From contig CAVPKM010000010.1 of assembly GCA_963705725.1 (NCBI GenBank), positions 1 to 64,000 of the forward strand: a stretch of DNA of 64,000 nt, read 5' to 3'. A program made the position numbers and the translations under genes. This DNA comes from an uncultured Gammaproteobacteria bacterium. GTDB lineage: Bacteria; Pseudomonadota; Gammaproteobacteria; UBA6002. Below the pieces are notes generated by a model. It ran no database searches and was not told the DNA's origin. It saw only the letters and a list, made by a program, of their open reading frames with translations. The first letter of the stretch is position 1, and each line of letters starts with the position of its first letter. This document shows, in pieces, positions 166 through 47,030 of this stretch.

Positions 166-356
166 TGCAGACCGATTAGTTTAAAAATAATAAAAAATAA
201 CTGATTGTTGAGAGAATAAAGCGAGGTGATAAAAGCAATTCAGTCCATTAATTAATGACCTCTTCCCCTGCAGAATACGGATATTTATTCTCCTGTATGT
301 AGAAAATGTTCGAATAAATTTGTAAGCCATTTCTGATATTCAATATTCTGCTTTAT

Positions 357-1994
357 TCATTTCCGAACAAAAAGCGCTAATATAGCTCGCACCTTTTCCT
401 CCGATAAGGGCTTAGCAAGCACGATATCCATCCCCGCAAGATGACAAGCGGCTTTGCCTGCCTCATCAACATGGGCCGACACCGCAATAATGGGTGTTGC
501 TTGATTTTGACTGGCCTTATTTCGCCTCGCTACCCTTGCTACCTCTATCCCACTGCCATCTGGTAACCCAATGTCCATAAAAACTAATTCATAACTTTCC
601 GATTTAATTTTTTCAAGAGCAGAAGCCACCGTTTCAGCTAGGCTGACCTGACATCCAAGCTTGGTGAGCAAGACCGCGCTCACTTTCCGGGCGATCAGGT
701 CATCTTCCACTAACAATACCCGAATTGCACTCGCCTTTGGGGAAGAAAATGGCTGTGCTTTTGCAGCCATAGTGAGCGAAATCGTATTGCCTGCTTTTTT
801 ATTCAGCTGCAGTTCCTGCTCATTTAATAATGCAACTTGTAGCGGCAAGATACAGGTATAAGTCGTGCCTTTTTTTGGACAACTGTCGACATAAATCTCT
901 CCCTCCAGTTCATCGATGATTTGTTTGATTAAGGCTAATCCTAGGCCCGTCCCACGTGATAAGCCTGAATAAGCAGCAGATAAATGTGGTAAGCGCGTAA
1001 ATAGGGCTTGCTGCTTTTCAAGGGTCATGCCAATTCCGGTATCTTGAACCATCATTTTAATAATGACCCGCTCTCCTGCTTGCTTAGCAAGCTGAGCGGT
1101 GAGGGTAATGCCGCCCTTATCCGTAAAATTTAAGGCATTGCTCATTAACTCTACCAGAATTTGCTCAATACGCTCGCCATCCCCAATTAATAAGGGAATC
1201 GATTCATCATATTTCAGCGCTAACTTCAGTCCTTTTTCTTTTGCTCGTGCTTGATTGAGCTTTAATAGAGAAAGCAGTTGACACTTTAGATTAACGCGCT
1301 GCTTTTTAAGCGCAGACACCCCATCCATGGCTTGAGTGCTCATCGTCACCTTATTTAATAAGCTTAAGAGCTCGCTACTTGAACTATCTACATCCTGCAA
1401 ATACTCTTTGGCTTGCTTTATTTCTGGATTTTTTTCCTCTAAGCAGTCTTGCAACAACTGGATGCAGCCACGCATCCCGCTGATCGGGGTGCGAATATCA
1501 TGACGCAGGTTTTCTAAAAATCGGGTTTTAGTCAAATAGGCCGCTTCCACATTCTCCTTAGCTTGGATTAATTTGGCTTCTGCCTTTTTTTGCGCCGTGA
1601 TATCAATGGAAATCCCCAGCACCCCGACCATTTGACCTTGATCGGTTTTTAAGGGAACCTTGATGCTCCACACCATGGCTGCCTTCCCATCTATCACCGC
1701 CATTTCTTCTACCGTTTTTGATAAGCCGCTCACTAACACTTGGCGATCATTTTCCCAAAAATGCGCTGCTAATTCTGCCTGCCAAGGGAGCTCAAAATCG
1801 GTTTTACCGATTACTTCCCGGCCTAAAGTCAGACCTAAACTTTGTGCTTGACGATCGTTACAACCGAGATAAATCCCATCTGTATTTTTCCAATAGACAT
1901 GACCGGGTAAATGTCGCAGTAAACTTTCTAGCACCAGTTGACAATCCACCGCTTGCTTGCCTGCTGCTACTCTTTTCGTGGGGTTCATCGCCAT
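357..1994 (-). CDS. PAS-HisKA-HATPase-REC hybrid sensor histidine kinase (no TM segment visible)
   Basis: PAS LPGHVYWKN..YLGCN and GVLGISIDIT; H-box ENLRHDIRTP; SNALNFT, DTGIG, GTGLGL; REC VLLVEDD, LVFMDIGLPD, AKP. Confidence 0.93.
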   Translation of the reverse strand: MAMNPTKRVAAGKQAVDCQLVLESLLRHLPGHVYWKNTDGIYLGCNDRQAQSLGLTLGREVIGKTDFELPWQAELAAHFWENDRQVLVSGLSKTVEEMAVIDGKAAMVWSIKVPLKTDQGQMVGVLGISIDITAQKKAEAKLIQAKENVEAAYLTKTRFLENLRHDIRTPISGMRGCIQLLQDCLEEKNPEIKQAKEYLQDVDSSSSELLSLLNKVTMSTQAMDGVSALKKQRVNLKCQLLSLLKLNQARAKEKGLKLALKYDESIPLLIGDGERIEQILVELMSNALNFTDKGGITLTAQLAKQAGERVIIKMMVQDTGIGMTLEKQQALFTRLPHLSAAYSGLSRGTGLGLALIKQIIDELEGEIYVDSCPKKGTTYTCILPLQVALLNEQELQLNKKAGNTISLTMAAKAQPFSSPKASAIRVLLVEDDLIARKVSAVLLTKLGCQVSLAETVASALEKIKSESYELVFMDIGLPDGSGIEVARVARRNKASQNQATPIIAVSAHVDEAGKAACHLAGMDIVLAKPLSEEKVRAILALFVRK

Positions 1995-1999
1995 TCCTT

Positions 2000-2329
2000 T
2001 TATTCCCTGCCGAGTCGATGAAAACGCAGCGCAATCGATGTTAATAAATGCGGATGATAATGACAGTCTGAAATGACTTGCAACTGAGATAAATAGCTCG
2101 CTTCACACGAAGAAGCACATTGGCGAAAATGGCGCAGCACAATAGCAATGAATGATGAGAGCTGCATAATTTCATTAGGCTTAAGCGGCCAGGGAGTAGT
2201 ATCAAATTGAATGGCGGGTGACTGCATAGATTTTTCCTTATACGCAGTGCACAACCTATCTAAAGGGTTGGGACACAGCAGAGAGGTTGAGCACAAGTTG
2301 TTGTGTTCAAAATTGAAGGCGGGTGACAA
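2000..2329 (-). CDS. hypothetical protein (real start possibly at MQSPAIQF)
   Basis: ORF ends 5 bp before the kinase start; AAGGA precedes the internal ATG. Confidence 0.3.
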   Translation of the reverse strand: MSPAFNFEHNNLCSTSLLCPNPLDRLCTAYKEKSMQSPAIQFDTTPWPLKPNEIMQLSSFIAIVLRHFRQCASSCEASYLSQLQVISDCHYHPHLLTSIALRFHRLGRE

Positions 2330-2355
2330 TTCAGCCCGCCATCAACCCCCTCTGC

Positions 2356-2686: not shown

Positions 2687-3100
2687 TTAAGAGGAGATTA
2701 TTTTTTCCTGACTACTCAGAGAAAAATACTTAAATAGCGTGTACCTCGCTTTCTCATCACTCAACGGTTTAATCATGTAATCATCAATGCCAAAACGCCG
2801 ACATTGCCCGGGAAGTTCACTCGATGCATGAGCGGTTAGCGCGATAATAATTTTATGTTTGTTCACCTTCTCTACACTTCGAATCGTTTCAGCGATTGAA
2901 AATCCACTGATATCGGGAAGATCGAGGTCCAGTAGAATGAGATCAATTGAGCGGGTAATGAGAGTATCCAAGGCTTCCTTGCTATTTTTAGCAACAAGGA
3001 CGCGATGACCCAAGTGAATCAAAACATGAACTGCGACTTTTTGAGCAGCGACTAGGTCTTCGACTAATAATATGTTAATAGATTTATTCATTGCTATCAT
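2687..3100 (-). CDS. single-domain response regulator (REC)
   Basis: ILLVED, LILLDLDLPD, IIALTAH, MIKP. Confidence 0.9.
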   Translation of the reverse strand: MIAMNKSINILLVEDLVAAQKVAVHVLIHLGHRVLVAKNSKEALDTLITRSIDLILLDLDLPDISGFSIAETIRSVEKVNKHKIIIALTAHASSELPGQCRRFGIDDYMIKPLSDEKARYTLFKYFSLSSQEKIISS

Positions 3101-12778: not shown

Positions 12779-12855
12779 GTATCCGCTAATTTAACCACCC
12801 ACTTATGCTATAACGTAAGTTCTTGCATACTCCTGTTTTTTTAAAGGAGTAGCGC

Positions 12856-13557: not shown

Positions 13558-13597
13558 AACAGTGAGGCATAGTGGAAAATTATAGTATCATGTCTCC

Positions 13598-15145: not shown

Positions 15146-15169
15146 AAGGGCTGATTAATTAGCGGATAC

Positions 15170-19651: not shown

Positions 19652-19655
19652 CTTG

Positions 19656-20594: not shown

Positions 20595-20610
20595 CGTATT
20601 TCCGCCTTTT

Positions 20611-22580: not shown

Positions 22581-22584
22581 TCCT

Positions 22585-23310: not shown

Positions 23311-23327
23311 CGTTTTTCCCTCTTTTA

Positions 23328-26116: not shown

Positions 26117-26136
26117 GTGGCTTCCATCCTGCCCCC

Positions 26137-26451
26137 TTAGATCACGCTGCCAACGCCAAAGAGGCTACTCACCCCTGCTGGCCCGGCCAAAGCAAGCGAT
26201 GCCCAGCAAAGAATATTTAAAATGCGCTTCACGCCATCCCCCCATTCTCCAAAGGCCATCATCAGCATCGTCGCCACCCATAAAATCACTAAGATGACAA
26301 AGACGCCGGATAAAAAGTTGGTTTTGAAGACGTCCAAAGTGCGATTAAACGGTAAGTAGCCGGTGGTGGAAGCAAAAGCCTCAACTTGACAAAAAAGGAG
26401 CAGCAGTAATGTGCCGCTTTTAAAAGCGCGAACAAATTTGTTACCATGCAT
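26137..26451 (-). CDS. trbC: TrbC/VirB2 propilin
   Basis: AFA leader, LPF..L, two hydrophobic helices around FGE. Confidence 0.8.
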   Translation of the reverse strand: MHGNKFVRAFKSGTLLLLLFCQVEAFASTTGYLPFNRTLDVFKTNFLSGVFVILVILWVATMLMMAFGEWGDGVKRILNILCWASLALAGPAGVSSLFGVGSVI

Positions 26452-26535
26452 TTGTAGGGTTCCTTAAATAACGTGGGGCACTACCTGCCTAAGAAGGGTC
26501 TCAACTCCCCTTCTTAGGATTCTGATTTCATGCTG

Positions 26536-27516
26536 CTAATCCTGCTCAATCAACTCGCCCTCCTCATTGACTTTTTCAACAATAAATTGTCCTCTCTCAT
26601 AACCCTTCACTAAGGCAAGATCGCTAATGACCCCGCCCTGGTTTCCGATACGCTCTACATACAAAATGGCGTCAATGGTTTGCAGCATGAGAGAAATTGG
26701 GGCGGACTGTCCGCCTTGGTGGCAAAGGTCCATTATTCTCTGCAATGTTGCCTCCACCCCATTGGCATGAAGCGTGCCAATTCCTCCTGAACATCCCACA
26801 TTCCAGGCTTGAAGCATGTCATAGGCTTCCACCCCTCTCAATTCGCCCACCAAAATTCGATCTGGACTCGCCCGAAGGCTGCTTAATAACAACCGGCTCA
26901 TCGGCACGCGAGGTTGACTCAAGCAGCGCAGCACATTTCGCCCCGCGCATTGAAGTTCAGGAACATCTTCTAAAATAATCAATCGCTCATTGGGATCCAG
27001 GCGGGTCACTTCATGAATCAAGGCATTGGTGACCGTCGTTTTCCCAGAGTTAGGGCGACCGGCCACCACGATATTTTTTCGCGCCTTTATCCAAGCTTTG
27101 ATACGCGCTGCTCTCCCTTGTGTGATTCTTCCGGTATCCACATAGTCATCCAAAGAAAAAACTTTCCTGGCTTTTTTTCGAATGTTAAAGGCAGGCCCCA
27201 GTACCACAGGTGGCATCTGCGCGTTGAAGCGCTCACCAAATAACCCCCTCTCCTCAGGAAAATCGGCTTCTAAAAAAGGATGATCGCTTGAGATCACCCG
27301 GTTCATTAATCCTGCCACATTATAAATAATCGCGGTTGCTCGCTTCGTTTCAAGCACACCCACGACTTTTCTCCCCTCGCTCAAACTGTCTATCCACACC
27401 TCTTGATTAGGATTACGCATCACTTCAATCACCGCCTTATCTGCCAAGTAAGGCATTAACGGCGCTAGATCTCGCACTAATTTTTCAATGGCGCGGGACT
27501 GTTCAGATCGCTCCAT
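26536..27516 (-). CDS. trbB: TrbB/VirB11 ATPase
   Basis: GRPNSGKTT, ILEDVPEL, LRASPDRILVGELRG, GTLHAN. Confidence 0.95.
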   Translation of the reverse strand: MERSEQSRAIEKLVRDLAPLMPYLADKAVIEVMRNPNQEVWIDSLSEGRKVVGVLETKRATAIIYNVAGLMNRVISSDHPFLEADFPEERGLFGERFNAQMPPVVLGPAFNIRKKARKVFSLDDYVDTGRITQGRAARIKAWIKARKNIVVAGRPNSGKTTVTNALIHEVTRLDPNERLIILEDVPELQCAGRNVLRCLSQPRVPMSRLLLSSLRASPDRILVGELRGVEAYDMLQAWNVGCSGGIGTLHANGVEATLQRIMDLCHQGGQSAPISLMLQTIDAILYVERIGNQGGVISDLALVKGYERGQFIVEKVNEEGELIEQD

Positions 27517-35166: not shown

Positions 35167-35595
35167 TCATCTGATCATTCTAATAAAAGCGTATAACGTT
35201 TGTGGCTCGATAACTTTCGAATGGATTTCATCGATGGCCAAATCACGACAGCGCCTAATTAAATCTGGAATAAACCAAGAGGTGAGTACAACAATTGGTG
35301 TAGGTAATTTTTTATGGTAGGATTCATACGCTCGTCTGGTGCTGGCGATTTCCAACCCATGACAGTCTGGTAGTCCAATGTCTAATAAGATTAAATCAAA
35401 AGAATTTTCAATAATTTTAAATGCTTCTTTTCCGGATGAAACCGACTTTATGGTAACTGCGTATTTTTTTAGATACAATTTCATCACTTGTTTGAGTGTA
35501 GGATCATCTTCTACTAGCAAAATATGCGGTTTTCTCTTCGTTTGTCGCGTAGGTTTAAATAAGATGTAATCAGCTTTTGTCTTTTTGCTATTCAT
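35167..35595 (-). CDS. single-domain response regulator (REC)
   Basis: ILLVEDD, LILLDIGLPD, PIVVLT. Confidence 0.88.
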   Translation of the reverse strand: MNSKKTKADYILFKPTRQTKRKPHILLVEDDPTLKQVMKLYLKKYAVTIKSVSSGKEAFKIIENSFDLILLDIGLPDCHGLEIASTRRAYESYHKKLPTPIVVLTSWFIPDLIRRCRDLAIDEIHSKVIEPQTLYAFIRMIR

Positions 35596-35726: not shown

Positions 35727-36359
35727 ATGAATGACAAGCAACAAGCAATTGAGCGTGGCAAGCGACTACGGCTTATTAGAAAAATTGCTGGATTAACAAG
35801 AAATCAATTGGCAGAGTCAATTGGTATGACACCTACTACCTTAAGCACGTGGGAAAATGCTAATTTCAATGGCATCACTCTAGGTGGCGGAGAAAAAGTT
35901 ATCACGACTTTATTGAGTAAGGGCGTCCACTGTTCCCTCGCTTGGCTAATGGAAGGGATTGGTCAACCTCCTGAAATTCTTTCCGAGCTATTAGGAAATG
36001 ATTCTATTTCGTTGAAGCCTGAACCAGAAAATAACATCCACAAAGAAATGATCTTTTTTTTACGTTTAAATCCTAAAAGTATCACTTTTCAAATTCGAGA
36101 CCCTCGCCTCATGCCTTTTTTAAAGCCAGGCGACTGGGTGGGCGGCCTTTGGCAAGCACCCAATGCAACCATCATTAATGAATTTTCTATCATTAAAGTC
36201 AATCAAGAGGAAGAAGTTTGCTTAATTCAGGCGGGATCTCAACCTGATCATTATACGTTGTGTTATACCACACAACTTAATTTAGAAACGCTTCCTCTTC
36301 AGCGCTTTGATGTCAAGCTGAAGGAAGTGGCAGTGATTACTCGTCTTTGGCGGAATTAA
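35727..36359 (+). CDS. CI/LvrR-like XRE HTH repressor with degenerate S24-like C-terminal domain
   Basis: RLRLIRKIAGLTRNQLA..TLSTWE, SLAWLMEGIG, LMPFLKPGDWV (the usual catalytic Ser is absent). Confidence 0.8.
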   Translation: MNDKQQAIERGKRLRLIRKIAGLTRNQLAESIGMTPTTLSTWENANFNGITLGGGEKVITTLLSKGVHCSLAWLMEGIGQPPEILSELLGNDSISLKPEPENNIHKEMIFFLRLNPKSITFQIRDPRLMPFLKPGDWVGGLWQAPNATIINEFSIIKVNQEEEVCLIQAGSQPDHYTLCYTTQLNLETLPLQRFDVKLKEVAVITRLWRN

Positions 36360-37522
36360 CGTCTGTTACCAACGTCCTTAGCATCCTCGAGACATTTTTT
36401 TAATTGCTTAAATGTAATGGGTTTAGCCAGCACCCCGATTAGTCCATTATCTAAAAAATATTCAATATCTGCCGGTGTTGTTGTTGATGTAATGCCCACA
36501 AAAAGACTATTGTGATTTATCGTTTGCATAGCCTGTCGCTTTACTGCTAGCCCATCCATATCTGGTAATGAGATGTCAAGTAAGATTAAGTCATACCGAT
36601 GCTCACTTAACGCCACTACCGCTTCTTGCCCTGTTTTGACAAGTTCTGCCTTTGAGTTTAAACGTTGCAATAACGATTGGAGAATTTCAGCTGTTTCGGA
36701 ATCATCTTCAACCAATAAAATTTCGTTGAGCTCAGTTATATATCGAAAAGATTCTAGTGTTTTTTTCTCACCCTTATTTTTATTTAATCTTTTCTCAATT
36801 CTTCTTTCTTCAGAATAGAAAGGAATGATAATCTCAACGCATGTGCCCTTTTCTAATTCACTTTGAATGGTTAAGTTCCCGCCTAATAATCTAATTAATG
36901 TTTGGGCATACGTCAGCTTAAGTGCTGGGTTTAAATAGCTTAATTCTTGTTCTTTAAAGAACGCAGGCAAGTGATTGATATCATTGACGACTCGTTCTGG
37001 AATTCCGATTCCTGTATCAGCAATAGTAAAATGAAGTCGATTTGAATCAGCGAAAACCTTAGCCTTAAGAAGAATTTGTCCTTGCCGAGTATATGTTAAA
37101 GCATTTTGGTAAAGTATTTTAAGGACTTGATATAAATGATAACTATCAATAAAGAATGTCTTCTCTAACAAGACAGGATCAACATTTATAATGTTTTCAA
37201 CGGATTTTTTCTGTTTTTCTTGCTGAATTTTATCAATCAGCGCCATAATATCAGTCGCGATAATCTCTAACTGAAGGCCACTCGTAACCAGATCGTAATA
37301 TTGACCTAACCATTTCGAACGCAAGTGATAAGTAGCTAGCTGCTTTTTAATTTTTTTCAGTTCTTTAATAATCTGGTTATTCTTAGGAGATTTGTCGAGC
37401 GCTTCCAACAGACATTCAATACGGGCACTTGCATTGGAAATTGGGCCACCCATTTCGTGCATAATTAAGGAAAGAAATTTTTTTTCATTGATATGATAAA
37501 AATCAACAGTGTTTTTCGACAT
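36356..37522 (-). CDS. sensor-less hybrid histidine kinase/REC, atypical ATP lid
   Basis: IMHEMGGP, QNALTYT, DTGIGI, degenerate G2 box (NPALKL), REC LILLDISLPD and AKP. Confidence 0.85.
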   Translation of the reverse strand: MSKNTVDFYHINEKKFLSLIMHEMGGPISNASARIECLLEALDKSPKNNQIIKELKKIKKQLATYHLRSKWLGQYYDLVTSGLQLEIIATDIMALIDKIQQEKQKKSVENIINVDPVLLEKTFFIDSYHLYQVLKILYQNALTYTRQGQILLKAKVFADSNRLHFTIADTGIGIPERVVNDINHLPAFFKEQELSYLNPALKLTYAQTLIRLLGGNLTIQSELEKGTCVEIIIPFYSEERRIEKRLNKNKGEKKTLESFRYITELNEILLVEDDSETAEILQSLLQRLNSKAELVKTGQEAVVALSEHRYDLILLDISLPDMDGLAVKRQAMQTINHNSLFVGITSTTTPADIEYFLDNGLIGVLAKPITFKQLKKCLEDAKDVGNRR

Positions 37523-37783
37523 AATTGCTCTTGTCTAAATTAGTAATAGACTAATAGTCATACTGATTTTGAATTTATAACATACACTTTTCGAGTGTTA
37601 ACAGTTATTTTTTTGTCCATACAAAGAAATCTTGTCAATTTAGTATATAACGTAAATTTCTCTTCTTAATGTCTGTTCTAAATCACCAGTTGAAAGGAGA
37701 AGCTCATTATCCACTTGCGGTATACCCTTTAGTCTTTCTCCGTAAGGCGCTGTCCGCCTGTTATATTTTTGGCGCCAAGCCAA

Positions 37784-37799
37784 TGTTCTACGTAGAACA
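37784..37799. promoter_or_regulatory. parS-like perfect 16-bp palindrome
   Basis: TGTTCTACGTAGAACA versus canonical TGTTTCACGTGAAACA. Confidence 0.6.
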
Positions 37800-37816
37800 G
37801 CGCCCACTGACCGAAA

Positions 37817-38820
37817 GATCCCTTATTGATATCTAATTGAGTCTTATATGATCCCTAATATGAATACTTAAGACTATCAATCATTATTGTAAAGAGAGCA
37901 GTCCAATCGCATCATGCTCCCATCTATATCAAACTTTCGAAACCAATTAAGTTTTCTCATCTTTCAAATTCATTTGTGAATAAAAATAATACATGGGGGC
38001 TTTTAATGCATCAGTACAGACTTATTTATTTTTGTTTACATTCAGAAGAGATAAATTCAGCTATTATATTACGCATATATTGGATTTTTTATAGCTGATT
38101 AACAAAGAAAACCAGTCAGATGATATCTATTTGATTTCCAATAGATACCCTTTTGATATCTATTTAACATCTATACTAACTCAAAGCTACACGTAAAAAC
38201 TGACTTCTCTATCCTATCCGAAAGATGTTGATTGATGATTCCCAATATGACCTAAATTGAAAGGATTAAAGTTGAGTATCAATTGGAGATCTATCGAGCA
38301 TCATTTAGATATCAAAAGATAATCATAAAGGAGCTTTTTAAAACTAATGGGGATCAATCAAGGCTCATATGGAACTCAATTAGGCATCATATAAGGATCG
38401 TATAGATATCATTTTAAATTTGAATCTCTCTATCTAATTCGAATAGCTACTTTGTGTGTTTTTAGATTTATGCAAATCGTTATTGATATCAATTGAACAT
38501 CATTTAAGAATCAACTAGACATCTATCAGGCATCATTTGGCGATCTAAAGAGAATCATTAAGGCACCTATTGGGAATCTTATAGAGATCAACCAAGATTC
38601 ATCTAGAAATCAATTGAATATCAAACAGGGTATCATAAAGGCATCAAGCATTAGGCATCAAATAAGGATCATATAGAAATCAAATTAAACTTGAATCTCT
38701 CTATTTATCCAGGTAACTCATGGGGTATTTTAAATTAATACGAATTGATATAGAAATCAATTAAGCATCTTTCAATAATCATTCAGACATCTATAGGGAA
38801 TCATTCGAGGGATCATTTTT
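37817..38820. repeat. phased degenerate 11-bp repeat arrays, candidate oriV or centromere
   Basis: ATC recurs every 11 bp in blocks from 38278, 38353, 38488 and 38756; reverse-oriented GAT blocks at about 37817 and 38122. Confidence 0.75.
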
Positions 38821-38828
38821 CAATTAGT

Positions 38829-38914
38829 AGTAGTAGTATTAAATTACTACTACTTTATATACACGATTTATTTTAAAAATATGTTTGACAGGTCTTTATC
38901 TGTAAGTTTAAAAT
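38829..38914 (+). promoter_or_regulatory. parA promoter region with an upstream inverted repeat
   Basis: AGTAGTAGTA-N6-TACTACTACT (38829-38854); TTGACA (38885), 18 bp, TAAAAT; AGGAG RBS follows. Confidence 0.6.
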
Positions 38915-38953
38915 TTTATTCAAATTTAACCGCAATCTTAAACAGGAGTCGGG

Positions 38954-39943
38954 ATGGAGCCTAAAATGTTAGTTTCAGAAGCCGCTGAAGCAGTTGGCCT
39001 TACAGTGCAGGCCCTGCACAATCAAATTAAGAAGAAAAATCTGATACATGCAAAAAGCAAGAATCGAGTATATTTTTCACATTCAACCGCTAAATCATTA
39101 TTAGAATTAAAATTCAAAAATCAAATTATCTGCTTCCAGATAGTCAAGGGAGGCACTGGGAAGACTTCATTGTGTCTGTCTGTCGGTGTTAGAGCCAGTT
39201 TATATGGAGCTAAAACGCTATTAATCGATCTTGATTCACAAGGTAATCTTACTACTGCGTGCCGAATAAAATCTCAAGACAAGCCAGTTATGGTCGATAT
39301 TATTAGTGACGATCTAAGTATTGAAGAAGGAATAATTAATGTCAGTGAAGGTTTAGACATTTTGCCAAGTCGTATAGAAAATGTGGTATTGGATAATACC
39401 CTTATGTTAAGAAGATTTCCTGTAGATAGAGTTTATCAAGAACTATTATCCCCACTGCGTCAGAAATATGATCTGATAGTTGTAGACTGTCCTCCTGCCC
39501 TTGGGTATTCGGTTGCTGCTACAGCATTAGCATCAGATAAAGTAATTTCTCCAGTAACACCATCTGAATTTAGCTTAGAGGGCCTAGAAATTACCTCGAA
39601 AGAATTACGAGATTTACAACAAAAATATAAAACCAAAATAAAACACAGCCCAATTTTAAATGAATTTGATGGAAGAACAACCTTATCGCACGATACCTTA
39701 CGATTTTTAGCTAGTCATAAAGAATTTAGCAAACATATGATGAGAACGGTAGTTAGAAAAAATCAAATTTTCGAAAATGTTTTGACAGAGCGCGTTTCTA
39801 TTTTTGATTCTCTATTACATAGCTCAGCTAAAGAAGATGTCGACCTCTTAACAAGAGAGATTCTCAGCATTGGCGTTTTTTCAGAACCCATTGAAGAAAG
39901 TTTGGATAAAAATAAAGTAAAAAAAGAAGACTTGGTTGTATAA
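38954..39943 (+). CDS. parA: ParA family partition ATPase with N-terminal HTH
   Basis: KGGTGKTS, LIDLDSQGNLT, VVDCPPALG. Confidence 0.95.
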   Translation: MEPKMLVSEAAEAVGLTVQALHNQIKKKNLIHAKSKNRVYFSHSTAKSLLELKFKNQIICFQIVKGGTGKTSLCLSVGVRASLYGAKTLLIDLDSQGNLTTACRIKSQDKPVMVDIISDDLSIEEGIINVSEGLDILPSRIENVVLDNTLMLRRFPVDRVYQELLSPLRQKYDLIVVDCPPALGYSVAATALASDKVISPVTPSEFSLEGLEITSKELRDLQQKYKTKIKHSPILNEFDGRTTLSHDTLRFLASHKEFSKHMMRTVVRKNQIFENVLTERVSIFDSLLHSSAKEDVDLLTREILSIGVFSEPIEESLDKNKVKKEDLVV

Positions 39944-39963
39944 GCTAAAAAGGATATTGCTGT

Positions 39964-41043
39964 ATGCCTAGCGTTGAAGAAATACTAAATGGAAAGAAGA
40001 AAAAATTTAAAAAAACAAATTATCGTCCTTGGAATTTTTTAGAAGACGCAGATGTAAAAAAAATTGATTCTGACAGTAAGGAAATTGAATATCATCAAGA
40101 AGCACCTCGACGAATAGAAGAAAGAAAAGAATTTAAAAAAAAATTACAGTCCAATGACACATTTCAAGAAGATCAGCAACATTATATCTCTACAGATACT
40201 TACCTTGATCAAATTGGTAGGTTAACTGGATATCAAAAAAAGATATTTGCCTATGTACTGGAACGTTGTATGAGTAGAGGAATGTTAACAACAGGAATGG
40301 TGACTAATGAAAGTTTATCTCAGATAACATCAACTTCTCGTCAAATGGTTAAAACGTCTATAAGTAGATTAATAGAGAAGGGCTTAATATATCGAGAGAA
40401 GGGTAAATCAGGTAGGGGAGGATTTTTTATTCTAAGAATTAGTGAGGGGATACGAGCTGCTGGGTTGGAACATAAACGAAAAAATGATTTTTTTATTGAG
40501 TACGATAAAAAAATAGATGAAGCGCTACCCGAAATAAAAAATTTAGTTACACCAGAAGGTTGGATTGATGAGGATATTGATTGCTTAAAGGATATTGGCT
40601 TTACATTTGATCATGTACAACAGCTATTAAACATAGGGATATCCACGGAAAAATTAAAAGAATCAATTTTATTTTTTGCATATGACCTAAAATATAACAA
40701 CAAGACAGCTGAAATTAAAAAATCACCTTTAAACTATTTTATTGGTATTTTACGGAAATCTCGAATGTATATACCCCCGGATAATTATGAGTCTCCTGAG
40801 GAGAAAACACTTCGCCTGTACATAGAAAAAAAAGAACAGGCTTTTAAGATTAAAGAAGCAAGACTGAATAAGGCATTTAATTTGGCTTTTGAGGATTGGT
40901 ACTCAACTTTGAATTCAAATGAAAAGGACATAATGCTTCCTAGCTCTTTAAAAAATCTTAAAGAAGGGAAAATTAAAATAGAACATTTTAAAAGCGTCTT
41001 TAGAGAAAAACACTGGCCAAAAATTTTAGATGAACTTTCTTAG
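39964..41043 (+). CDS. winged-helix DNA-binding protein, candidate replication initiator
   Basis: VKTSISRLIEKGLIYREKGKSGRGG; follows parA next to the repeat arrays; no ParB GxxR box seen. Confidence 0.5.
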   Translation: MPSVEEILNGKKKKFKKTNYRPWNFLEDADVKKIDSDSKEIEYHQEAPRRIEERKEFKKKLQSNDTFQEDQQHYISTDTYLDQIGRLTGYQKKIFAYVLERCMSRGMLTTGMVTNESLSQITSTSRQMVKTSISRLIEKGLIYREKGKSGRGGFFILRISEGIRAAGLEHKRKNDFFIEYDKKIDEALPEIKNLVTPEGWIDEDIDCLKDIGFTFDHVQQLLNIGISTEKLKESILFFAYDLKYNNKTAEIKKSPLNYFIGILRKSRMYIPPDNYESPEEKTLRLYIEKKEQAFKIKEARLNKAFNLAFEDWYSTLNSNEKDIMLPSSLKNLKEGKIKIEHFKSVFREKHWPKILDELS

Positions 41044-41297
41044 TAGCAAAACTTTGGAATGATAAAAGGGTATAAAAATTTAATAACCTATTGCTATTTT
41101 TATTTTACCTTCAAAGTTAATTTTAGATCACTGTTTAGTCAAATATCACAAGTAATTTGAATTTTTGCACATATAACGAAAAAATAAAAATTTGTAAAAA
41201 ATACTATAGTTTAAGTTTGTTTTAGCAATCTAGCCATCTAAGCATTTTTAATGTATAGTAATTAAAATTAACTAAATTACACTAAGGATATACAAAA

Positions 41298-42017
41298 ATG
41301 TTTCAATCGAAAGAACCTTCAAATATTAAAGCTTCTCGCAAGGTGCTGACTGCCCGTTTTGCAGGGTTGGCGGGTAAAGCTCCTAATTTTAAAAAAACAA
41401 GTTGTATTCTTCTTGTTAGTGTTGGAAAAGAAAATTTTGAAGGATCTGCCCTTGAAGCTCAGTTAAAATTAATTAATGCAGAATTTAATGATTGCATAAT
41501 ATTAGTTGCTGATACACTTCAGCGCTATAATTTTTTAGCTTCTTATACTGAAATCTTGTCTGAAGAAAAAGCGAGAGAGGTAGGTTCCGAATGGATTAAT
41601 AGACATAATCATTTATTTAAACAGCATTTAACAAATATTAATTATGAGATTTGCAGATGGGATGAATGGATAGAAAAAGAGGGCTTTTTGGGAAAAAAAA
41701 TAATGATTGAACAACAGCTAAATTCAGACAGTATATATATTGAAGCGATGAACAAGTCTATTAACGAGTTTGTTACTAGGTGTCAAAAAAGAATTACACC
41801 TGATCAATTTTTCAATGAATTAGAAATAACTGAAAACTGTAAAAATTATCTCATAGAGGAATGTGCTGTTTTGTTAATGCTGGGCGAAGAAAATTATCAA
41901 TATATTGTCTATCCGGGAAAAGAGACACCTATTTTAGCTGCAACTCTTGATTTCATACATCAACAGAAATCAGATTGTTTAAAGGTTAGAGAAAAAGAAA
42001 GAAAGTCAACCAACTAA
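41298..42017 (+). CDS. tRNA-dependent cyclodipeptide synthase (CDPS), XYP subfamily; probable frameshifted extension to 42222
   Basis: LLVSVG (catalytic Ser), VADTLQRYN, RWDEW, NYLIEECA (Tyr/Glu), IVYPG (Tyr-Pro). Confidence 0.88.
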   Translation: MFQSKEPSNIKASRKVLTARFAGLAGKAPNFKKTSCILLVSVGKENFEGSALEAQLKLINAEFNDCIILVADTLQRYNFLASYTEILSEEKAREVGSEWINRHNHLFKQHLTNINYEICRWDEWIEKEGFLGKKIMIEQQLNSDSIYIEAMNKSINEFVTRCQKRITPDQFFNELEITENCKNYLIEECAVLLMLGEENYQYIVYPGKETPILAATLDFIHQQKSDCLKVREKERKSTN

Positions 42018-42626
42018 TTTTTTTATAAATAGACCTTCTTATCAAGAGAAGAAAATTTCTATCGATTTAAATACGTTAGCCTTATCCTTTACTGTAAACT
42101 TAAAAACTATTTTGCAAGCTATCCCAACTTCTGAAGAGCGAATGGCGCTGCTTGAAAAAATTGAATTAGATATCTTAAATGAATTAAGAGAATTATCTCA
42201 TGAAAAGCAGGAACTTGCATAAAAGCTGTTGCTATTTTATCAAATGGAATTTGAATAATGCATAAAAAATACGATCTCAAAAAAAAAGTAATAACTTTAG
42301 AAAAAATTATTTCATTGTTGCCTGGACATATTTATTGGAAGGATATGAATGGTGTTTATCTTGGTTGTAACTATTATCAAGCAAAATCTTTAGGATTCGA
42401 ATCTATTGCTGAAATTATAGGGAAAACAGACTACGAGTTACCTTGGAGAGAACAAGCAGATGAATTAGTACGAATAGATAAGAAAATAATAGCTACAAAG
42501 CAAGCTATTAAGACAGAGGAATTCGTAGTCCTACCAGATGGAAAAAAGGGTATCCGCTAATTTAACCACCCACTTATGCTATAACGTAAGTTCTTGCATA
42601 CTCCTGTTTTTTTAAAGGAGTAGCGC

Positions 42627-42980
42627 ATGACAGCAACCCATAATTCGCCTTCTCAAAAAACTCTGGCATTAAATATGGAAAAATGGCGATCAATAATTAC
42701 AGATTGGGAATTAAGCAAAGAAAGTCAAAAAAAATATTGTGAGCGGTTAGGGATAAGTTTAAATACTTTTACGCATGCCCGTAGCAAGTTAATTCGAGAT
42801 AAAAAAATAAAACCCGCGTTTATTCCTCTCTCTTTGAATCCAATCGAGATTCAAAATTCTTCGAGCATTAATACCGTGATTATTGAAAACCCGAAGGGAT
42901 TTAAACTCCATGTTTCATCAGAATTATCGTTAGATCGTTTAGTGAAAATTTTTAAATTATGTGGGTGGTTAAATGCTTAA
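42627..42980 (+). CDS. tnpA: IS66 TnpA
   Basis: WELSKESQKKYCERLGIS, PAFIPL. Confidence 0.9.
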   Translation: MTATHNSPSQKTLALNMEKWRSIITDWELSKESQKKYCERLGISLNTFTHARSKLIRDKKIKPAFIPLSLNPIEIQNSSSINTVIIENPKGFKLHVSSELSLDRLVKIFKLCGWLNA

Positions 42981-43329
42981 GTTACGAGACGAAGTAAAAA
43001 TTTATGTGAGCATGGAGCCTATAGATGCGAGAAAAAGCATTGATAGTTTATGTATCCTTATTGTCGAAAATTTTAAGGATAATCCACAATGTGGGAGCCT
43101 CTTTATTTTTTTTAATAAATCACGAGATAAAGTAAAAATTATTTGGTGGGATGCAAATGGTTTTATTCTACATTACAAGCGCCTTGAAAAAGGACGCTTT
43201 GTTCTGCCAAAATTAAGTGGAATTGATAAACTAGAAATTTCACAAACTCAGCTTCACGGTTTATTGGCAGGTTTAGATTTCTCACTCATGCGCCATTTTC
43301 CTGAAATAAATTATTATCAATATGCATAA
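42973..43329 (+). CDS. tnpB: IS66 TnpB
   Basis: protein identical to 13201..13557. Confidence 0.95.
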   Translation: MLKLRDEVKIYVSMEPIDARKSIDSLCILIVENFKDNPQCGSLFIFFNKSRDKVKIIWWDANGFILHYKRLEKGRFVLPKLSGIDKLEISQTQLHGLLAGLDFSLMRHFPEINYYQYA

Positions 43330-43369
43330 AACAGTGAGGCATAGTGGAAAATTATAGTATCATGTCTCC

Positions 43370-44917
43370 ATGGATAGATCTCATGAATTACAAGCGATAT
43401 CAAAAGAAGAATTAATTAAAATAATTCAACAAAAAAACACCCTCCTTTTTGAACAAGCAAAACAAATTCAATTTTTAGAAGAGCAAATTCTTGCCTATCG
43501 ACTTCGCCAATTTGCCAATAAATCCGAGAAAATTAATCCTAATCAAATTTCTCTTTTTGATGAGGCGGTATTGCCTAAATCAGAAGAGAAAATCTTATCA
43601 CAAGAAGAAGTCATCACGGTTGCTTCTTATACTAAAAGTAAGCAGGTAGGGAGAAGAGCACTACCTGCAGAATTATTTCGTATACCTCGAATCTATGATT
43701 TATCTGAAGATGAAAAAATTTGTCAATGCGGTTGTGCATTAACTCACATTAAAGATGAAAAAAGCGAGCAACTCGAAATTATTCCAGCAAAAATTTATGT
43801 CATCGAGCATATCAGAAAAAAATATGCCTGCAAAAAATGTCAAGAAACCATTAAGCTAGCAAAACAACCTGCTGCACCTATTCCAAGGAGTATTGCAGCA
43901 AGTGGATTATTAAGTCACGTATTGGTTTCAAAATTTCAAGATCACTTGCCGCTATTTCGCCAAGAAAAAATATTAAAACGCATTGGTGTGGATATTCCTC
44001 GAGCCACATTATGTTTATGGGTGATCAAGTGTGCTGAACTTTTGCTGCCGATTTTAAAACTAATGCATGATCGAATATTAACTTATGATATTGCTTATGT
44101 TGATGAAACCACATTGCAAGTTATTAAAGAACAGAATAAAAGTATAAAAAGTAAAAAATACATGTGGCTTTATTCAGGCGGACCCAAAGCACAATTTGTT
44201 TATTACTACCAATATCATCCTTCACGCTCACACGAAGTCGCCGATGCTTTTTTTGCGGATTTTTCAGGCTACTTACACTGTGATGGCTTCATTGGGTATG
44301 ACACATTAGCGGGAAAAAGAAAAACGATAAAACTGGTTGGCTGTTGGTATCACGCGAGACGAAAATTTATTGAAGTTACAAAGCTCATGCCAAATAAAGA
44401 AGGGGTGGCTTGGCATATTGTTAAACTCATTGCAAAACTCAGCGTGATTGAAGAAGAAATAAAAATCTTATCTGCTGCAGAAAAACAGGCTATTCGACAA
44501 GCGAAATCGAAAGTGATTATCAATGAAATACAGGATTATCTCATCAAACATCAATCTATTATTCCACCAAAAAGTTTATTAGGAGAAGCGGTAGGTTATA
44601 CACTCAATCAATGGCCAAAATTATTAAGATTTCTTGATGATGGACGTCTCGATATTAGTAATAATCTTTCTGAGCGAGGCATTAAACCTTTTGTAATCGG
44701 CAGAAAAGGTTGGCTCTTTGCTGATAGTGTGGCTGGCGCTCATGCAGCAGCAACAATTTTTAGCATCATTGAAACTTGCAAGTATCATCAGGTTGAGCCT
44801 TATGATTATTTGCGATATGTGCTTGATGTCATACCTCGATGCAACACGATTGAAGATTACGAAAAACTCCTTCCTTATAATATTGATCGAGCACTGCTGG
44901 TTAGCCAAGTGCGCTGA
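43370..44917 (+). CDS. tnpC: IS66 transposase TnpC
   Basis: protein identical to 13598..15145. Confidence 0.97.
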   Translation: MDRSHELQAISKEELIKIIQQKNTLLFEQAKQIQFLEEQILAYRLRQFANKSEKINPNQISLFDEAVLPKSEEKILSQEEVITVASYTKSKQVGRRALPAELFRIPRIYDLSEDEKICQCGCALTHIKDEKSEQLEIIPAKIYVIEHIRKKYACKKCQETIKLAKQPAAPIPRSIAASGLLSHVLVSKFQDHLPLFRQEKILKRIGVDIPRATLCLWVIKCAELLLPILKLMHDRILTYDIAYVDETTLQVIKEQNKSIKSKKYMWLYSGGPKAQFVYYYQYHPSRSHEVADAFFADFSGYLHCDGFIGYDTLAGKRKTIKLVGCWYHARRKFIEVTKLMPNKEGVAWHIVKLIAKLSVIEEEIKILSAAEKQAIRQAKSKVIINEIQDYLIKHQSIIPPKSLLGEAVGYTLNQWPKLLRFLDDGRLDISNNLSERGIKPFVIGRKGWLFADSVAGAHAAATIFSIIETCKYHQVEPYDYLRYVLDVIPRCNTIEDYEKLLPYNIDRALLVSQVR

Positions 44918-45464
44918 GGGGCTGATTAATTAGCGGATACAAAAAGGCAACTTTCTTATCGATTAAACATCCTTTATGTGACGATGATGATAATGTTATT
45001 GGTATTTTAGGAGTTTCTTTTGATATTACTGATCGAAAGCAAATGGAGAGTGAATTAATACGAACAAAAGAACAGGCTGAAATAGCAAATAAAGCAAAAA
45101 CCGAATTTTTAGAAAACATGCGCCATGATATCCGTACGCCATTGACTGGCATCACGGGATTTGCATCAATCATCGCTGATGAATCCAAAGACCTAAAAAT
45201 TAAAGAGTATGCAGAAAACTTGGTCTCTTCTAGCTATGCACTCAATGATTTATTAAATGAAATTTTAGAAGTAATTAAAATTGGATCCAATGAAATTCCA
45301 ATGCTAAAGAAAAAATTTAATTTCAATGATAAATTGTCTAATATCATCAAGCTGTTAAACGCTAAAGCTTTACAAAAGCAGCTTCAGCTGACATTGGACT
45401 ATGATGACAGGATTCCTACTTATCTTCTAGGAGACTCCACTCGAATACATCGCATTGTTTTAGA

Positions 45465-46979
45465 GAGGCTGTAAAATTTTTTGTGTAACTGGATTTAGTC
45501 AGTATAAACTAACTGAAACAAGGAGTACTGACTATGGCGACAAAACTCACTTCATTTGATCCGCAAATGATAGATAATTTGATTAAGGACTGCAAAACCC
45601 AAGAAGATATGTTTGGCGAAGGAGGTCTTCTGAAAAACTTGACGAAGGCACTTTTGGAAAGGGCCATGCAAGGAGAGATGAGCAGCCACTTGGGCTACGA
45701 GAAAAATGAGGCTAAAGGTAAGAATAGCGGCAATTCTCGAAATGGATATTCAGAAAAAACTTTAAAGGGCGAAAATGGCGAATTTACTATCCAGGTACCC
45801 AGAGATCGAAATGCAGATTTTTCTCCCCAGATTGTTGCTAAGAACCAAACGCGTTTTGAAGGGTTTGATGACAAAATCATCAGCCTTTATGCGAGAGGGA
45901 TGACGACACGTGATATACAGGGGCAATTGCAAGAGCTCTATGGGGTAGAAGTCTCTCCTACTTTCATTTCCAATGTGACCAACGAAGTCATTGAGGAAGT
46001 GAAAACTTGGCAGTGTCGTCCCTGATAAACTTTATCCCATTGTTTACTTTGATGCCTTAATGATCAAAGTTAAAGAAGATAAGCGAGTGATTAACAAAGC
46101 CTTTTATCTTGCTTTGGGTGTAGATCTTGAAGGGCAAAAAGAATTACTGGGAATTTGGATTAGCCAAACGGAAAGTTCAAAATTTTGGCTCAATGTGTTA
46201 TCTGAATTGCAGCATCGTGGTGTGGGAGATATTTTGATTGCTTGCGTTGATGGCCTTACGGGCTTTCCTGATGCCATTTCAACGGTATTTCCCAAGACCC
46301 AGGTTCAACTTTGCATTGTTCATATGATTCGAAATTCACTACGCTATGTTCCTTGGAAAAGCCGTAAGCAAGTGGCGGCGGATTTAAAAACGATTTATGG
46401 CGCAAAGACACTCGATGAAGCCGAATTATGTCTCGCTACTTTTTCCGAGAAGTGGGACGAGCATTACCCTTCTATCAGTAAAAGCTGGCTGACTCACTGG
46501 GAAAATGTCACGCCTTTTTTTGGCTACTCTTCTGAAATTCGTCGCGCGATTTATACTACGAATGCAGTTGAATCCGTGAATATGAGCCTTCGGAAGGTTA
46601 TTAAAAGTAAGCGCGTTTTTCCTTCGGATGATGCGGCTTTGAAGCAGCTATATTTAGCGCTTAAAAATATTTCAAAAAAATGGACAATGCCAATACGAAA
46701 TTGGGGTGATGCCATGAATCGTTTTATGATCCTGTTCGAAGACAGGCTAAAAGGAGCGATTTAGTTTAAGAACTGATTTAAAATTTTGTGCCTTCGATCG
46801 CCTGTGGATATATGCACAAACTGACTCGTTGCACTCGTCAGTATTGCGCACATACCCACAGGCACAATAATTTTATTTGTTTATTTAAAAAATTTTTGTT
46901 ATTTTAATTTCGCTATCTGGAATTCGGTAGCAAAAAATCTGCTGACTCAACCTGCTTACACAAAATTATTTACGCTACC
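45465..46979 (+). mobile_element. IS256 family element, copy 1; transposase split into 45534..46025 and 46060..46764
   Basis: imperfect TIRs GAGGCTGTAAAATTTTTTGTGTAA / GGTAGCGTAAATAATTTTGTGTAA; NSRNGY, VPRDR, ACVDGLTG, QLCIVH, IYTTNAVE. Confidence 0.95.
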
Positions 46980-47030
46980 TATATTTTAGGTCATACACAA
47001 GTTTTTCTCAGGAAAAAATTGAATTAAGGG

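Follow-up and report, generated by a model that had tools for sequence, protein, structure and literature searches.

The cyclodipeptide synthase (CDPS) gene and the sensor kinase gene behind it, in a plasmid-borne region of an uncultured gammaproteobacterium, probably represent a conserved two-gene module in a state of decay; in the intact form of this module the cyclodipeptide would be the ligand of the kinase. CDPSs take two aminoacyl-tRNAs and convert them into a small cyclodipeptide. The recurrence of a CDPS and a kinase as a pair in many intracellular bacteria suggests an unstudied chemical signalling module. What role CDPSs play in intracellular bacteria that have no other secondary metabolism has been debated since 2010 or earlier (PMC2922099). 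The features of the analysed stretch of 64,000 nucleotides (the window) are given in Table 1.

Table 1. Features of the CDPS-kinase locus and of the related kinase region in the window
Feature	Coordinates	Strand	Details
XYP-type CDPS	41298..42017	+	239 aa; predicted catalytic core intact: S41 (SVG), Y184 and E188 (YLIEEC, glutamates E187/E188), Y205-P206 (YP)
Detached C-terminal tail of CDPS, +1 frame	41998..42222	+	Translation and similarity to tail of P0002
Sensor kinase, 5' part: N-terminal two thirds of VqmA-type PAS (PGHIYWKD motif)	42258..42549	+	PAS_4 E 5e-5 (Pfam)
IS66-family element inside PAS domain	42550..44940	+	tnpA 42627-42980, tnpB 42973-43329, tnpC 43370-44917
Sensor kinase, rest of PAS (LSIKHPL) and HisKA with phospho-accepting His	44941..45464	+	HisKA E 6e-15 (Pfam)
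IS256-family element truncating kinase	45465..46980	+	Transposase_mut; transposase split into ORFs 45534-46025 and 46060-46764
Second, intact kinase of same family and last 58 nt of a CDPS gene (orphan sensor)	283..2060	-	ORF 360-1994, 545 aa
Single-domain receiver protein, upstream of orphan kinase	2687..3100	-	Response_reg E 8e-19

The first ORF of the locus is a genuine XYP-type CDPS, as the first-pass annotation had claimed from its SVG, YLIEE and YP motifs, all of which are present. In a phmmer search against the PDB it matched the solved CDPSs 5ocd (E 4.9e-32), 5mlq (E 7.9e-22), and 5mlp (E 6.7e-5), and 5ocd, from Fluoribacter dumoffii, is also the nearest solved structure for the second CDPS paralogue of the genome (E 7.2e-55). 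The AlphaFold model (pLDDT 85.8) adopts a class-I aaRS-like Rossmann fold, and its top Foldseek matches are CDPS structures, with TM scores of 0.82-0.90 for 5ocd and 0.84-0.90 for the Nocardia brasiliensis CDPS and rmsd values of 1.8-2.4 A to 5ocd, 5mlq, 9iaj, and other CDPS chains; Tyr- and Phe-tRNA synthetases rank far below them. Of the two checks proposed earlier, structure prediction thus confirmed the enzyme and profile searching did not, as the TIGR04539 score of 28.1 bits fell short of the cutoff of 45 and Pfam PF16715 gave no match. The clade is too divergent for these curated models, and the assignment is founded on the fold and on the matches in the PDB. Among 41 kinase-linked CDPS relatives, no variation occurs at the catalytic Ser, Glu, and Tyr and almost none at the Pro, and the position of Y184 is occupied by Phe in part of the clade; in AlbC numbering the catalytic residues are S37, Y178, E182, and Y202. 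In Pfam scans, the neighbouring ORFs proved to encode ParA, a 359-aa protein, transposases, an ATPase of the AAA_28 family, and a transporter of the MFS type, and no tailoring enzyme (oxidase, P450, or methyltransferase) lies beside the CDPS, in agreement with the earlier observation.

The CDPS gene has been damaged at its 3' end. Its relatives are mostly 300-345 aa long, and the C-terminal tail has been lost from the 239-aa ORF through a frameshift in an A-rich run (approximately 41985-42003). The following frame encodes a sequence similar to the tail of P0002, which is the closest relative (38% over 47 aa; E 1e-4 in a single comparison). With the tail restored, CDPS and kinase would be separated by about 35 nt, a gap like that of the relatives. 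The frameshift may alternatively stem from an error of assembly in the homopolymer run.

The kinase gene is interrupted twice. Its first ORF (42258-42560) also matched the PAS family profile (E 7.5e-34), and the piece aligns to residues 8-84 of kinase homologues. The element behind it belongs to the IS66 family, with three ORFs (TnpB_IS66 and DDE_Tnp_IS66 by Pfam), 22-nt inverted ends, and a short target duplication, the 7-bp repeat AAAAAGG at 42543-42549 and 44941-44947; a second copy, 99.8% identical, lies at 12778-15169. The HisKA domain on the other side, with the motif MRHDIRTPL, is found in ORF 45043-45474. The earlier claim that a PAS-HisKA gene is rebuilt in frame once the IS66 element is removed proved correct: both flanks share one reading frame, the PAS piece reaches approximately residue 84-93 of the 552-aa kinase of locus L017, the HisKA piece covers residues 91-269 of the same protein, and when aligned to homologous kinases the pieces adjoin, with nothing missing at the junction. 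The second piece stops within the first residues of the ATPase domain because the IS256-family element cuts there. An inverted copy of the latter element, 100% identical, is located at 52036-53551, and no target duplication matching across its ends was found at either copy. The window kinase therefore possesses HisKA with its phospho-accepting His and lacks HATPase_c and the C-terminal receiver, both present in intact homologues; this remainder was not found in the 1.58-Mb assembly. With IS66 in its PAS fold and its ATPase and receiver domains removed by IS256, this copy has been inactivated twice and therefore cannot sense. Together with the frameshift in the CDPS, these insertions identify the window copy as decayed; it retains an open CDPS core, and cyclodipeptide production is at most what it could still do. 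As the copy is broken, a present function in this organism is not inferable.

With regard to the orphan kinase, positions 283-2060 are 99.2% identical to contig C7 (L015 8620-10397), which carries a chromosomal CDPS-kinase pair, and 923 bp with the CDPS (L015 7697-8619) have been deleted from the window copy. The domain order of the orphan, as read from the C7 copy, is PAS_4-HisKA-HATPase_c-REC. This origin, the IS256 truncation, and the CDPS frameshift are points beyond the first-pass annotation. Judging from its position, the single-domain receiver is possibly the phosphorelay partner of the orphan kinase. It had also been suggested that the module feeds into REC/LuxR regulators of the plasmid and possibly controls conjugation. 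The link to LuxR regulators is unsupported, as no LuxR/GerE domain was detected by Pfam in the 40 window ORFs scanned; control of conjugation is speculation, since nothing ties the module to the trb genes and its neighbours vary in other genomes.

The pairing of CDPS and kinase goes beyond chance. The window and loci L001-L098 yielded a non-redundant set of 66 CDPS domains. A kinase lies immediately 3' of the CDPS on the same strand in 55 of them, is fused to it in two, and is missing there in six, three loci being too short to judge; these counts are not independent because the relatives share ancestry. The six exceptions are L014, L088/L092, L089, L094, L096, and L064, the last of which has an adjacent but divergent kinase. 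Among 31 genomes of the Rickettsiella order, 48 CDPS matches were found in 22, with up to eight per genome, and a class-wide sample gave matches in 36 of 401 genomes (35 of 320 genera). In this sample, a PAS protein or kinase is encoded downstream on the same strand at 21 of 30 loci, on the other strand at five, and not at all at three. The conserved adjacency on which the earlier proposal had staked its case is thus evident in both sets. The kinase gene usually overlaps the CDPS gene or is 4-30 nt distant from it, the spacing in most pairs being -84 to +32 nt, and at two loci a single open frame holds CDPS, PAS, and HisKA, with or without HATPase (L079 2193-3674 and L085 3896-5722). The two fusions are 32% identical to each other, and the CDPS of L079 is 46% identical to that of the unfused L082. 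CDPS and kinase distances correlate (Mantel r 0.76, reached in 0 of 999 permutations, 44 pairs), which is expected for linked genes and shows that the pairs are inherited and duplicated as units.

Intact kinases consist of a VqmA-type PAS domain, HisKA, HATPase_c, and REC, and the PAS domain begins at approximately residue 10-25, which leaves no space for a preceding membrane segment. The neighbours of the module differ between genomes, and no DNA-binding response regulator is consistently adjacent. PQ-loop (SemiSWEET-like) membrane ORFs adjoin the module in five of 20 metagenome loci, and a PQ-loop region shares one open frame with a PAS region in L082 and L083; such neighbours are compatible with signal transport, as a hint. 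In addition, all four plasmids of Ca. Endohaliclona ren carry a CDPS homologue, and in the one inspected the CDPS is followed by a gene annotated as a sensor histidine kinase and by a REC ORF, with the renieramycin gene RenA alongside.

The PAS domain resembles that of VqmA, with which Vibrio perceives the pyrazinol autoinducer DPO. The best PDB matches of the PAS profile are VqmA-DPO structures (E 2e-14), named as such in the Foldseek titles, and passages on these structures support the identity of the matched entries (PMC8284805). A PAS model (pLDDT 89.4) gave VqmA chains as its six top Foldseek matches, with an rmsd of 1.8 A and 30-31% identity; the family profile and the C7 paralogue served for these comparisons, in place of the window copy, which is split. 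VqmA K101, described in a passage as essential for DPO binding (bioRxiv 10.1101/2019.12.19.881847), aligns with the near-invariant Lys of the LSxKxPL motif of the kinases, and its equivalent is kept in the LSIKHPL of the window kinase; K23, D71, and D85 align with K, D, and E that are likewise conserved. At the positions of F67 and F99, which stack on the ligand in VqmA, the kinase consensus has no aromatic residue, and the pocket therefore differs from that of VqmA. In the window's own genome, VqmA-type PAS domains occur only in three CDPS-context kinases. The proportions of such PAS matches that adjoin a CDPS in five genomes of the Rickettsiella order are about 8/24, 3/11, 2/10, 1/5, and 2/5. 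The PAS family is thus larger than the CDPS family, and the domain need not sense cyclodipeptides.

In the intact module, the XYP-type CDPS would make a cyclodipeptide from two aminoacyl-tRNAs with the catalytic residues that are kept here, and the downstream gene encodes a hybrid histidine kinase that is soluble. This cyclodipeptide, or something closely derived from it, may bind the PAS pocket through the lysine that hydrogen-bonds the DPO carbonyl in VqmA, and binding would switch autophosphorylation, with a phosphorelay via REC to separate receiver proteins. Signalling between cells, whether to sense a quorum, diffusion, or confinement within a host vacuole, is slightly favoured over signalling inside the producer. 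The synthase-plus-sensor reading of the first-pass annotation is supported in part, by the adjacency and the VqmA-type PAS domain, but fails for the window's own dead sensor. It is also conceivable, although not probable, that the modules are intracellular gauges of tRNA charging, in which charged tRNA pairs would be turned into a cyclodipeptide second messenger read in cis by its own kinase. Up to eight divergent pairs might then monitor several amino-acid pools, and their output could govern starvation-triggered differentiation in vacuole-dwelling Legionella- or Rickettsiella-like bacteria. Reading in cis would be plainest in the fused CDPS-PAS-kinase proteins.

Several other explanations of the pairing were weighed. 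The kinase might be a cluster-situated regulator that senses another cue (host, redox, or nutrient) and merely controls or accompanies the CDPS, the cyclodipeptide being an effector against the host or competitors. Regulators are common in biosynthetic clusters and would yield identical synteny, many VqmA-type PAS proteins of the five Rickettsiella-order genomes have no CDPS neighbour, the pair adjoins RenA on the Endohaliclona plasmid, and Aravind and colleagues, in a passage of PMC2922099, proposed that these enzymes serve host manipulation in Legionella, Rickettsiella, and chlamydiae. However, a consistently adjacent DNA-binding response regulator is missing, the two fusions are hard to reconcile with a protein that only controls transcription, PAS domains of this type belong to a receptor whose ligand is a small heterocycle made from two amino acids, and in the window's own genome this type is confined to CDPS contexts, so that a regulator of this kind seems unlikely. 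Fusions and overlapping or tightly spaced genes would suit two proteins acting together by contact, with the CDPS-like protein as an aminoacyl-tRNA-binding input subunit of the kinase and no diffusible product; but the invariance of the catalytic Ser, Glu, and Tyr in the kinase-linked CDPSs argues for selection on catalysis, beyond binding alone, and makes such a partnership very improbable.

For the window locus itself, it is highly likely that no functional link exists and that a pseudogenised remnant is carried as plasmid cargo, its adjacency being historical only: the IS66 split, the IS256 truncation, the CDPS frameshift, and the second kinase copy without its CDPS all favour this. It is accepted for the present state of the window copy, but leaves the conserved pairing elsewhere unexplained, for which the ligand-kinase module is preferred.

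If the latter is true, a widespread signalling system exists in small-genome Gammaproteobacteria, given CDPS matches in about one in nine sampled genera, with a tRNA-derived cyclodipeptide as the signal and, as its receptor, a kinase carrying the PAS type of the Vibrio DPO receptor. The VqmA-type receptor family would then extend from transcription factors to phosphorelays, and natural orthogonal signal-and-sensor pairs would be supplied. The hypothesis is directly testable with three purified components. The window's own message is more modest, that of a plasmid-borne copy under destruction by insertion sequences.

The earlier statement that no characterised system of this kind is known agrees with the literature searched, in which no experimental study of the CDPS-kinase pair was found, though Skinnider et al. 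2018 had already put forward, in one passage, the association of PAS with CDPSs and the quorum-sensing idea (BMC Genomics 19:45, PMC5767969). There, PAS ranks with the most frequent Pfam domains of non-biosynthetic type in the +/-2.5 kb around CDPSs; the section concerned devotes one sentence to it at the Pfam-domain level and does not define a family, name taxa, describe the architecture of the kinase, fusions, or copy numbers, or draw a sequence or fold link to VqmA. The papers on the XYP CDPSs of Legionellaceae and Rickettsiella characterise products only. A review passage gives Gly+Gly as substrates for Fdum-CDPS (5ocd) and Phe+Phe/Leu for Rgry-CDPS (5mlp) (PMC12945691). A kinase neighbour is not mentioned in the passages searched, and the word "kinase" does not occur in PMC5816076.

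Among known systems, DPO-VqmA of Vibrio cholerae, with the VqmA of phage VP882, has the ligand-binding PAS domain closest to that of the kinase in sequence and fold, and both receptors are cytoplasmic. VqmA binds a small N-heterocycle with a six-membered ring that derives from two amino acids, and K101, the lysine in contact with the carbonyl of this ligand, is conserved in the kinase PAS domain. Unlike the CDPS-kinase pair, vqmA is not known to be linked to its own synthase gene. The presumed synthase here, a CDPS, depends on tRNA, whereas DPO is made with the help of threonine dehydrogenase (Tdh), which its synthesis requires according to a passage of the same preprint (bioRxiv 10.1101/2019.12.19.881847). 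The output also differs, being a hybrid histidine kinase here and a LuxR-type HTH in VqmA.

In CqsA/CqsS of Vibrio and LqsA/LqsS of Legionella, the synthase gene adjoins the sensor kinase gene and the output is a phosphorelay, as in the CDPS pair. Their signals are alpha-hydroxyketones from PLP-dependent enzymes and their kinases are membrane-bound, whereas in the kinase here the PAS domain lies too near the N-terminus for a membrane segment to precede it. CDPS biosynthetic clusters, such as AlbC with AlbA/B, YvmC with CypX, and Rv2275 with CYP121, share the enzyme family and fold of the window CDPS; their conserved partner is a tailoring enzyme, whereas here it is a sensor.

A cyclodipeptide synthase (CDPS) of catalytically competent appearance is paired with a soluble hybrid kinase that carries a PAS domain of the VqmA type. 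The pairing is conserved, and the two genes are inherited together and occasionally fused. Relatives of the CDPS in the window were collected from its own order (five genomes, one holding five copies), GTDB with one genome per species, the Rickettsiella order (48 matches in 22 of 31 genomes, up to eight per genome), and metagenomes (20 loci). Collapsing identical sequences left 66 distinct CDPS domains, the window copy included. A kinase lies directly downstream on the same strand in 55 of the 66 and is fused to the CDPS in two, counts that are not independent events as relatives share ancestry; three loci are too short for judgement. Six have no kinase of this type downstream (L014 from Micavibrio, L088/L092, L089, L094, L096, and L064, where the kinase adjoins the CDPS but is divergent). 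Two further loci (L046 and L067) were left out because HMM re-detection failed; the reported match at each locus has a kinase ORF after it. An even sample of the class covered 401 genomes and 320 genera, and CDPS matches occurred in 36 of these genomes and 35 of the genera (genome G000 included). Of the 30 loci retrieved, 21 have a PAS protein or kinase downstream on the same strand and five have it on the other strand, three have neither, and one meets a contig end. The adjacency that the first-pass annotation described for one locus is thus conserved in homologues.

Kinases of this type number roughly 5-24 per genome in genomes of 1.4-1.9 Mb, so that one should seldom fall by chance on the correct side and strand of a CDPS. 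Furthermore, CDPS and kinase diverge in step (Mantel r 0.76 over 44 pairs, reached by 0 of 999 permutations), which shows that each pair is passed on and duplicated as a unit. Beyond the pair itself, no neighbouring gene is conserved, which leaves the proposed link to conjugation unsupported; the same applies to the proposed LuxR regulators, none of which was found among the 40 window ORFs scanned with Pfam.

Several other arrangements were observed among the relatives. Two pairs stand in tandem on one contig (L080), and the order is CDPS-CDPS-PAS in L110. In a kinase-less clade (L088, L089, and L092), the start of the CDPS overlaps an ORF of 232-249 aa at two loci: the ORF in L089 shows an HTH-like stretch by eye, and the one in L088 gave no match in a Pfam scan. 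Downstream of the CDPS, L088 and L092 share a conserved ORF of 129 aa. A CDPS-like gene of Vibrio aquimaris (L129) has no PAS neighbour. The sponge symbiont Ca. Endohaliclona renieramycinifaciens carries the same set on its renieramycin plasmid (L130, MK748464.1): a CDPS, a PAS-PAS-kinase, and a REC gene follow one another a few kb from RenA, with no annotation beyond a hypothetical protein and a putative sensor histidine kinase.

With regard to the window itself, the synthase was confirmed by sequence matches to solved CDPSs (5ocd, E 4.9e-32; 5mlq, 7.9e-22) and by its AlphaFold model (pLDDT 85.8), which overlays on solved CDPSs with TM 0.82-0.90 and rmsd of about 2 A. The sequence has S41 as its nucleophile, together with Y184, E188, and Y205-P206, the Tyr-Pro pair of the XYP subfamily; the Ser, Glu, and Tyr are invariant across 41 relatives. 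The top Foldseek rank is 5ocd, and the Foldseek titles, which give 5ocd as the Fluoribacter dumoffii enzyme and 5mlp as that of R. grylli, rule out 5ocd as the Rickettsiella grylli enzyme. Curated HMMs stay below threshold (TIGR04539, 28 bits where 45 are required; Pfam, no match), and this divergence of the clade may explain why it escaped annotation; public records label the CDPS neighbours hypothetical. Relatives are mostly 300-345 aa long, and past the stop the +1 frame encodes a tail similar to the one in the closest relative (38% over 47 aa; E 1e-4), indicating that a frameshift in an A-rich run has detached the tail from a core domain that is whole. The frameshift is possibly an assembly error.

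The kinase follows downstream on the same strand, as had been noted from the sequence. The initial two thirds of the PAS domain lie in its first ORF, which is interrupted by an IS66 copy flanked on both sides by the 7-bp repeat AAAAAGG; beyond the insertion, the frame restarts with the PAS end and a HisKA domain. Aligned to homologous kinases, the two pieces meet without the loss of a residue, bearing out the earlier claim that the gene rebuilds in frame once IS66 is removed. The gene then ends where IS256 cuts it, just as the ATPase domain begins. Homologues that are intact have the order PAS_4-HisKA-HATPase_c-REC and a length of 505-552 aa, so about half of this kinase is gone, and the missing 3' half was not found in the source assembly (1.58 Mb, 20 contigs, 92% complete) with either a 552-aa homologous kinase (L017) or the PAS profile as query. 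No matching target duplications flank either of the two IS256 copies, which are 100% identical and each have a transposase split in two ORFs; the flanks point to IS-mediated deletion or rearrangement. This kinase copy cannot signal, and the window's own module is a wreck.

An intact orphan kinase also stands in the window. It is 99.2% identical to a kinase on another contig of the genome (C7), which there follows a second CDPS, 31% identical to the window CDPS. The 923 bp that hold this CDPS are absent from the window copy of the C7 cassette, and hence an orphan accompanies the broken pair; a single-domain receiver gene lies upstream of it. A search of the Rickettsiella order with the C7 CDPS found no close relative of 5ocd (best match, 28% identity). 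Prediction of the C7 CDPS-PAS complex from alignments gave a score of 0.01 (mark 0.32), which counts neither for nor against binding.

Positions of the features in the window and in related loci
Feature	Sequence	Position	Strand	Remark
CDPS ORF	window	41298-42017	+	239 aa
CDPS frameshift	window	near 41985-42003		A-rich run
Detached CDPS tail	window	41998-42222		+1 frame
Kinase, first ORF	window	42258-42560	+	
IS66	window	42550-44940		99.8% identical to copy at 12778-15169
Kinase, second piece	window	44941-45464	+	
IS256	window	45465-46980		transposase ORFs 45534-46025, 46060-46764
Transposase of second IS256 copy	window	52252-53482	minus	split transposase
Orphan kinase	window	360-1994	minus	
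Copy of C7 cassette	window	283-2718	minus	
Single-domain receiver gene	window	2687-3100		
RPE65-type genes	window	10604-11926 and 3553-4206	minus	full gene and truncated second copy
TetR regulator	window	4254-4895		
Trb-type type IV secretion set	window	15820-27516	minus	coupling protein, TrbI, CagX/TrbG, TrbL, VirB4-like ATPase, TrbB
1599-aa ORF	window	27519-32318	minus	
Receiver-only gene	window	35167-35595	minus	
XRE-like ORF	window	35727-36359		
HATPase_c-REC protein	window	36356-37522	minus	degenerate HisKA region
ParA	window	38954-39943		
KfrA	window	58095-59156		
ParB	window	61629-62156		
Integrase, PIN module, AbiEi module	window			
CDPS-kinase fusion	L079	2193-3674		
CDPS-kinase fusion	L085	3896-5722		
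PQ-loop ORF	L079	1898-2212		
PQ-loop ORF	L085	3642-3899		
PQ-loop ORF	L084	5515-5856	minus	
PQ-loop ORF	L082	4678-6504		one open frame with PAS region
PQ-loop ORF	L083	2195-2764		one open frame with PAS region
Tandem pairs	L080	1061-4716		
CDPS-CDPS-PAS	L110	1438-3706		
Kinase-less CDPS	L088	2450-4222		
Kinase-less CDPS	L089	3187-4705		
Kinase-less CDPS	L092	3-925		
CDPS, PAS-PAS-kinase, REC	L130	4890-7947		

The window corresponds to positions 1-64000 of contig C10, and the region 41298-45464 sits on a plasmid-like stretch with Trb-type secretion and partition genes. At the end of the Trb set, a 1599-aa ORF without a Pfam match at E 1e-4 may encode a relaxase/primase-type protein. The RPE65-type carotenoid oxygenase genes are unusual cargo for the plasmid of a small-genome bacterium, and the truncated one is arranged divergently to a TetR regulator gene. 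A receiver-only gene and a HATPase_c-REC protein, with an XRE-like ORF alongside, lie 4-6 kb upstream of the CDPS; the first two could be phosphorelay partners of the module, to which no link was found. No tandem repeats were found in 37400-41300.

The sensor domain was compared through a profile built from 40 CDPS-linked PAS domains. Its best solved relatives are the Vibrio cholerae VqmA structures with 3,5-dimethylpyrazin-2-ol (DPO; 6ide, 6ugl, and 6kju, E 2e-14), followed by the BvgS PAS (7e-11) and a phage VqmA (5e-5). The PAS model (pLDDT 89.4) agrees, its top six Foldseek matches being VqmA chains (rmsd 1.8 A, 30-31% identity). In the cytoplasm, VqmA serves as the receptor for DPO, an autoinducer. 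PAS domains of this type are expanded in five Rickettsiella-order genomes (G034, G021, G010, G005, and G009), with 5-24 matches each.

CDPSs use two aminoacyl-tRNAs to make cyclodipeptides, VqmA-type PAS domains bind small ligands, and hybrid kinases pass phosphate through their own receiver to further proteins. In the proposed mechanism, the cyclodipeptide made by the synthase would be the ligand of the paired PAS kinase, which would signal onward through its receiver. It appears fairly probable that the CDPS product is this ligand: the synthase-sensor reading of the first-pass annotation has gained support from synteny, fusions, and VqmA kinship, all of it comparative. The fusions place CDPS, PAS_4, and HisKA in a single open frame on two unrelated metagenome contigs (L079 and L085, one with HATPase_c too). 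They share only 32% identity with each other, and the CDPS part of L079 shares 46% with an unfused CDPS, which makes two separate fusion events likely. The main rival holds that the kinase responds to another cue and does no more than regulate or accompany the CDPS. This explanation is considered rather unlikely, but it is kept in view because many PAS proteins of the VqmA type have no CDPS neighbour; in the five Rickettsiella-order genomes, no more than about a fifth to two fifths adjoin one.

If the product is the ligand, the module could serve communication between cells, confinement sensing in a vacuole, or a report on tRNA charging inside the cell. A small PQ-loop (SemiSWEET-like) membrane ORF adjoins the pair in five of the 20 metagenome loci and in none of the flanks examined in the window and Rickettsiella loci; such proteins are candidate dipeptide transporters and lean towards communication between cells or confinement sensing, and the fusions lean towards the tRNA-charging report. 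As a class, the CDPS-kinase module is well worth testing.

According to the accessible part of Skinnider et al. 2018 (PMC5767969), PAS belongs to the non-biosynthetic Pfam domains that recur most often near CDPSs, and the authors suggested quorum sensing, with the Vibrio system as their analogy. CDPS-PAS quorum sensing was therefore already in print as an idea, and the figure and supplements of that paper may list PAS-linked clusters. The accessible parts of two other papers note CDPSs in Legionella, Rickettsiella, and chlamydiae, with host interaction proposed (Aravind and colleagues, PMC2922099), and characterised products of Legionellaceae CDPSs, with an extra C-terminal domain (Gondry et al., PMC5816076). 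In the open-access texts searched, no experimental study of the pair was found, nor any statement of the kinase architecture, strict synteny, fusions, multi-copy expansion, or VqmA sequence kinship.

The residues of VqmA that hold the ligand are F67, F99, and K101, and in a residue count on the HMMER alignment all ten VqmA residues named in the accessible part of that paper fell on the expected letters (bioRxiv 10.1101/2019.12.19.881847). K101 aligns to the near-invariant Lys of LSxKxPL, and K23, D71, and D85 align to conserved K, D, and E; the positions aligned to F67 and F99 are not aromatic. The IS66 in the window lies between the equivalents of D85 and K101 and thus splits the pocket. Aromatic clamps suit a planar pyrazine, and a pocket of similar size that keeps the carbonyl-binding lysine without these clamps might be what is expected for the saturated ring of a diketopiperazine.
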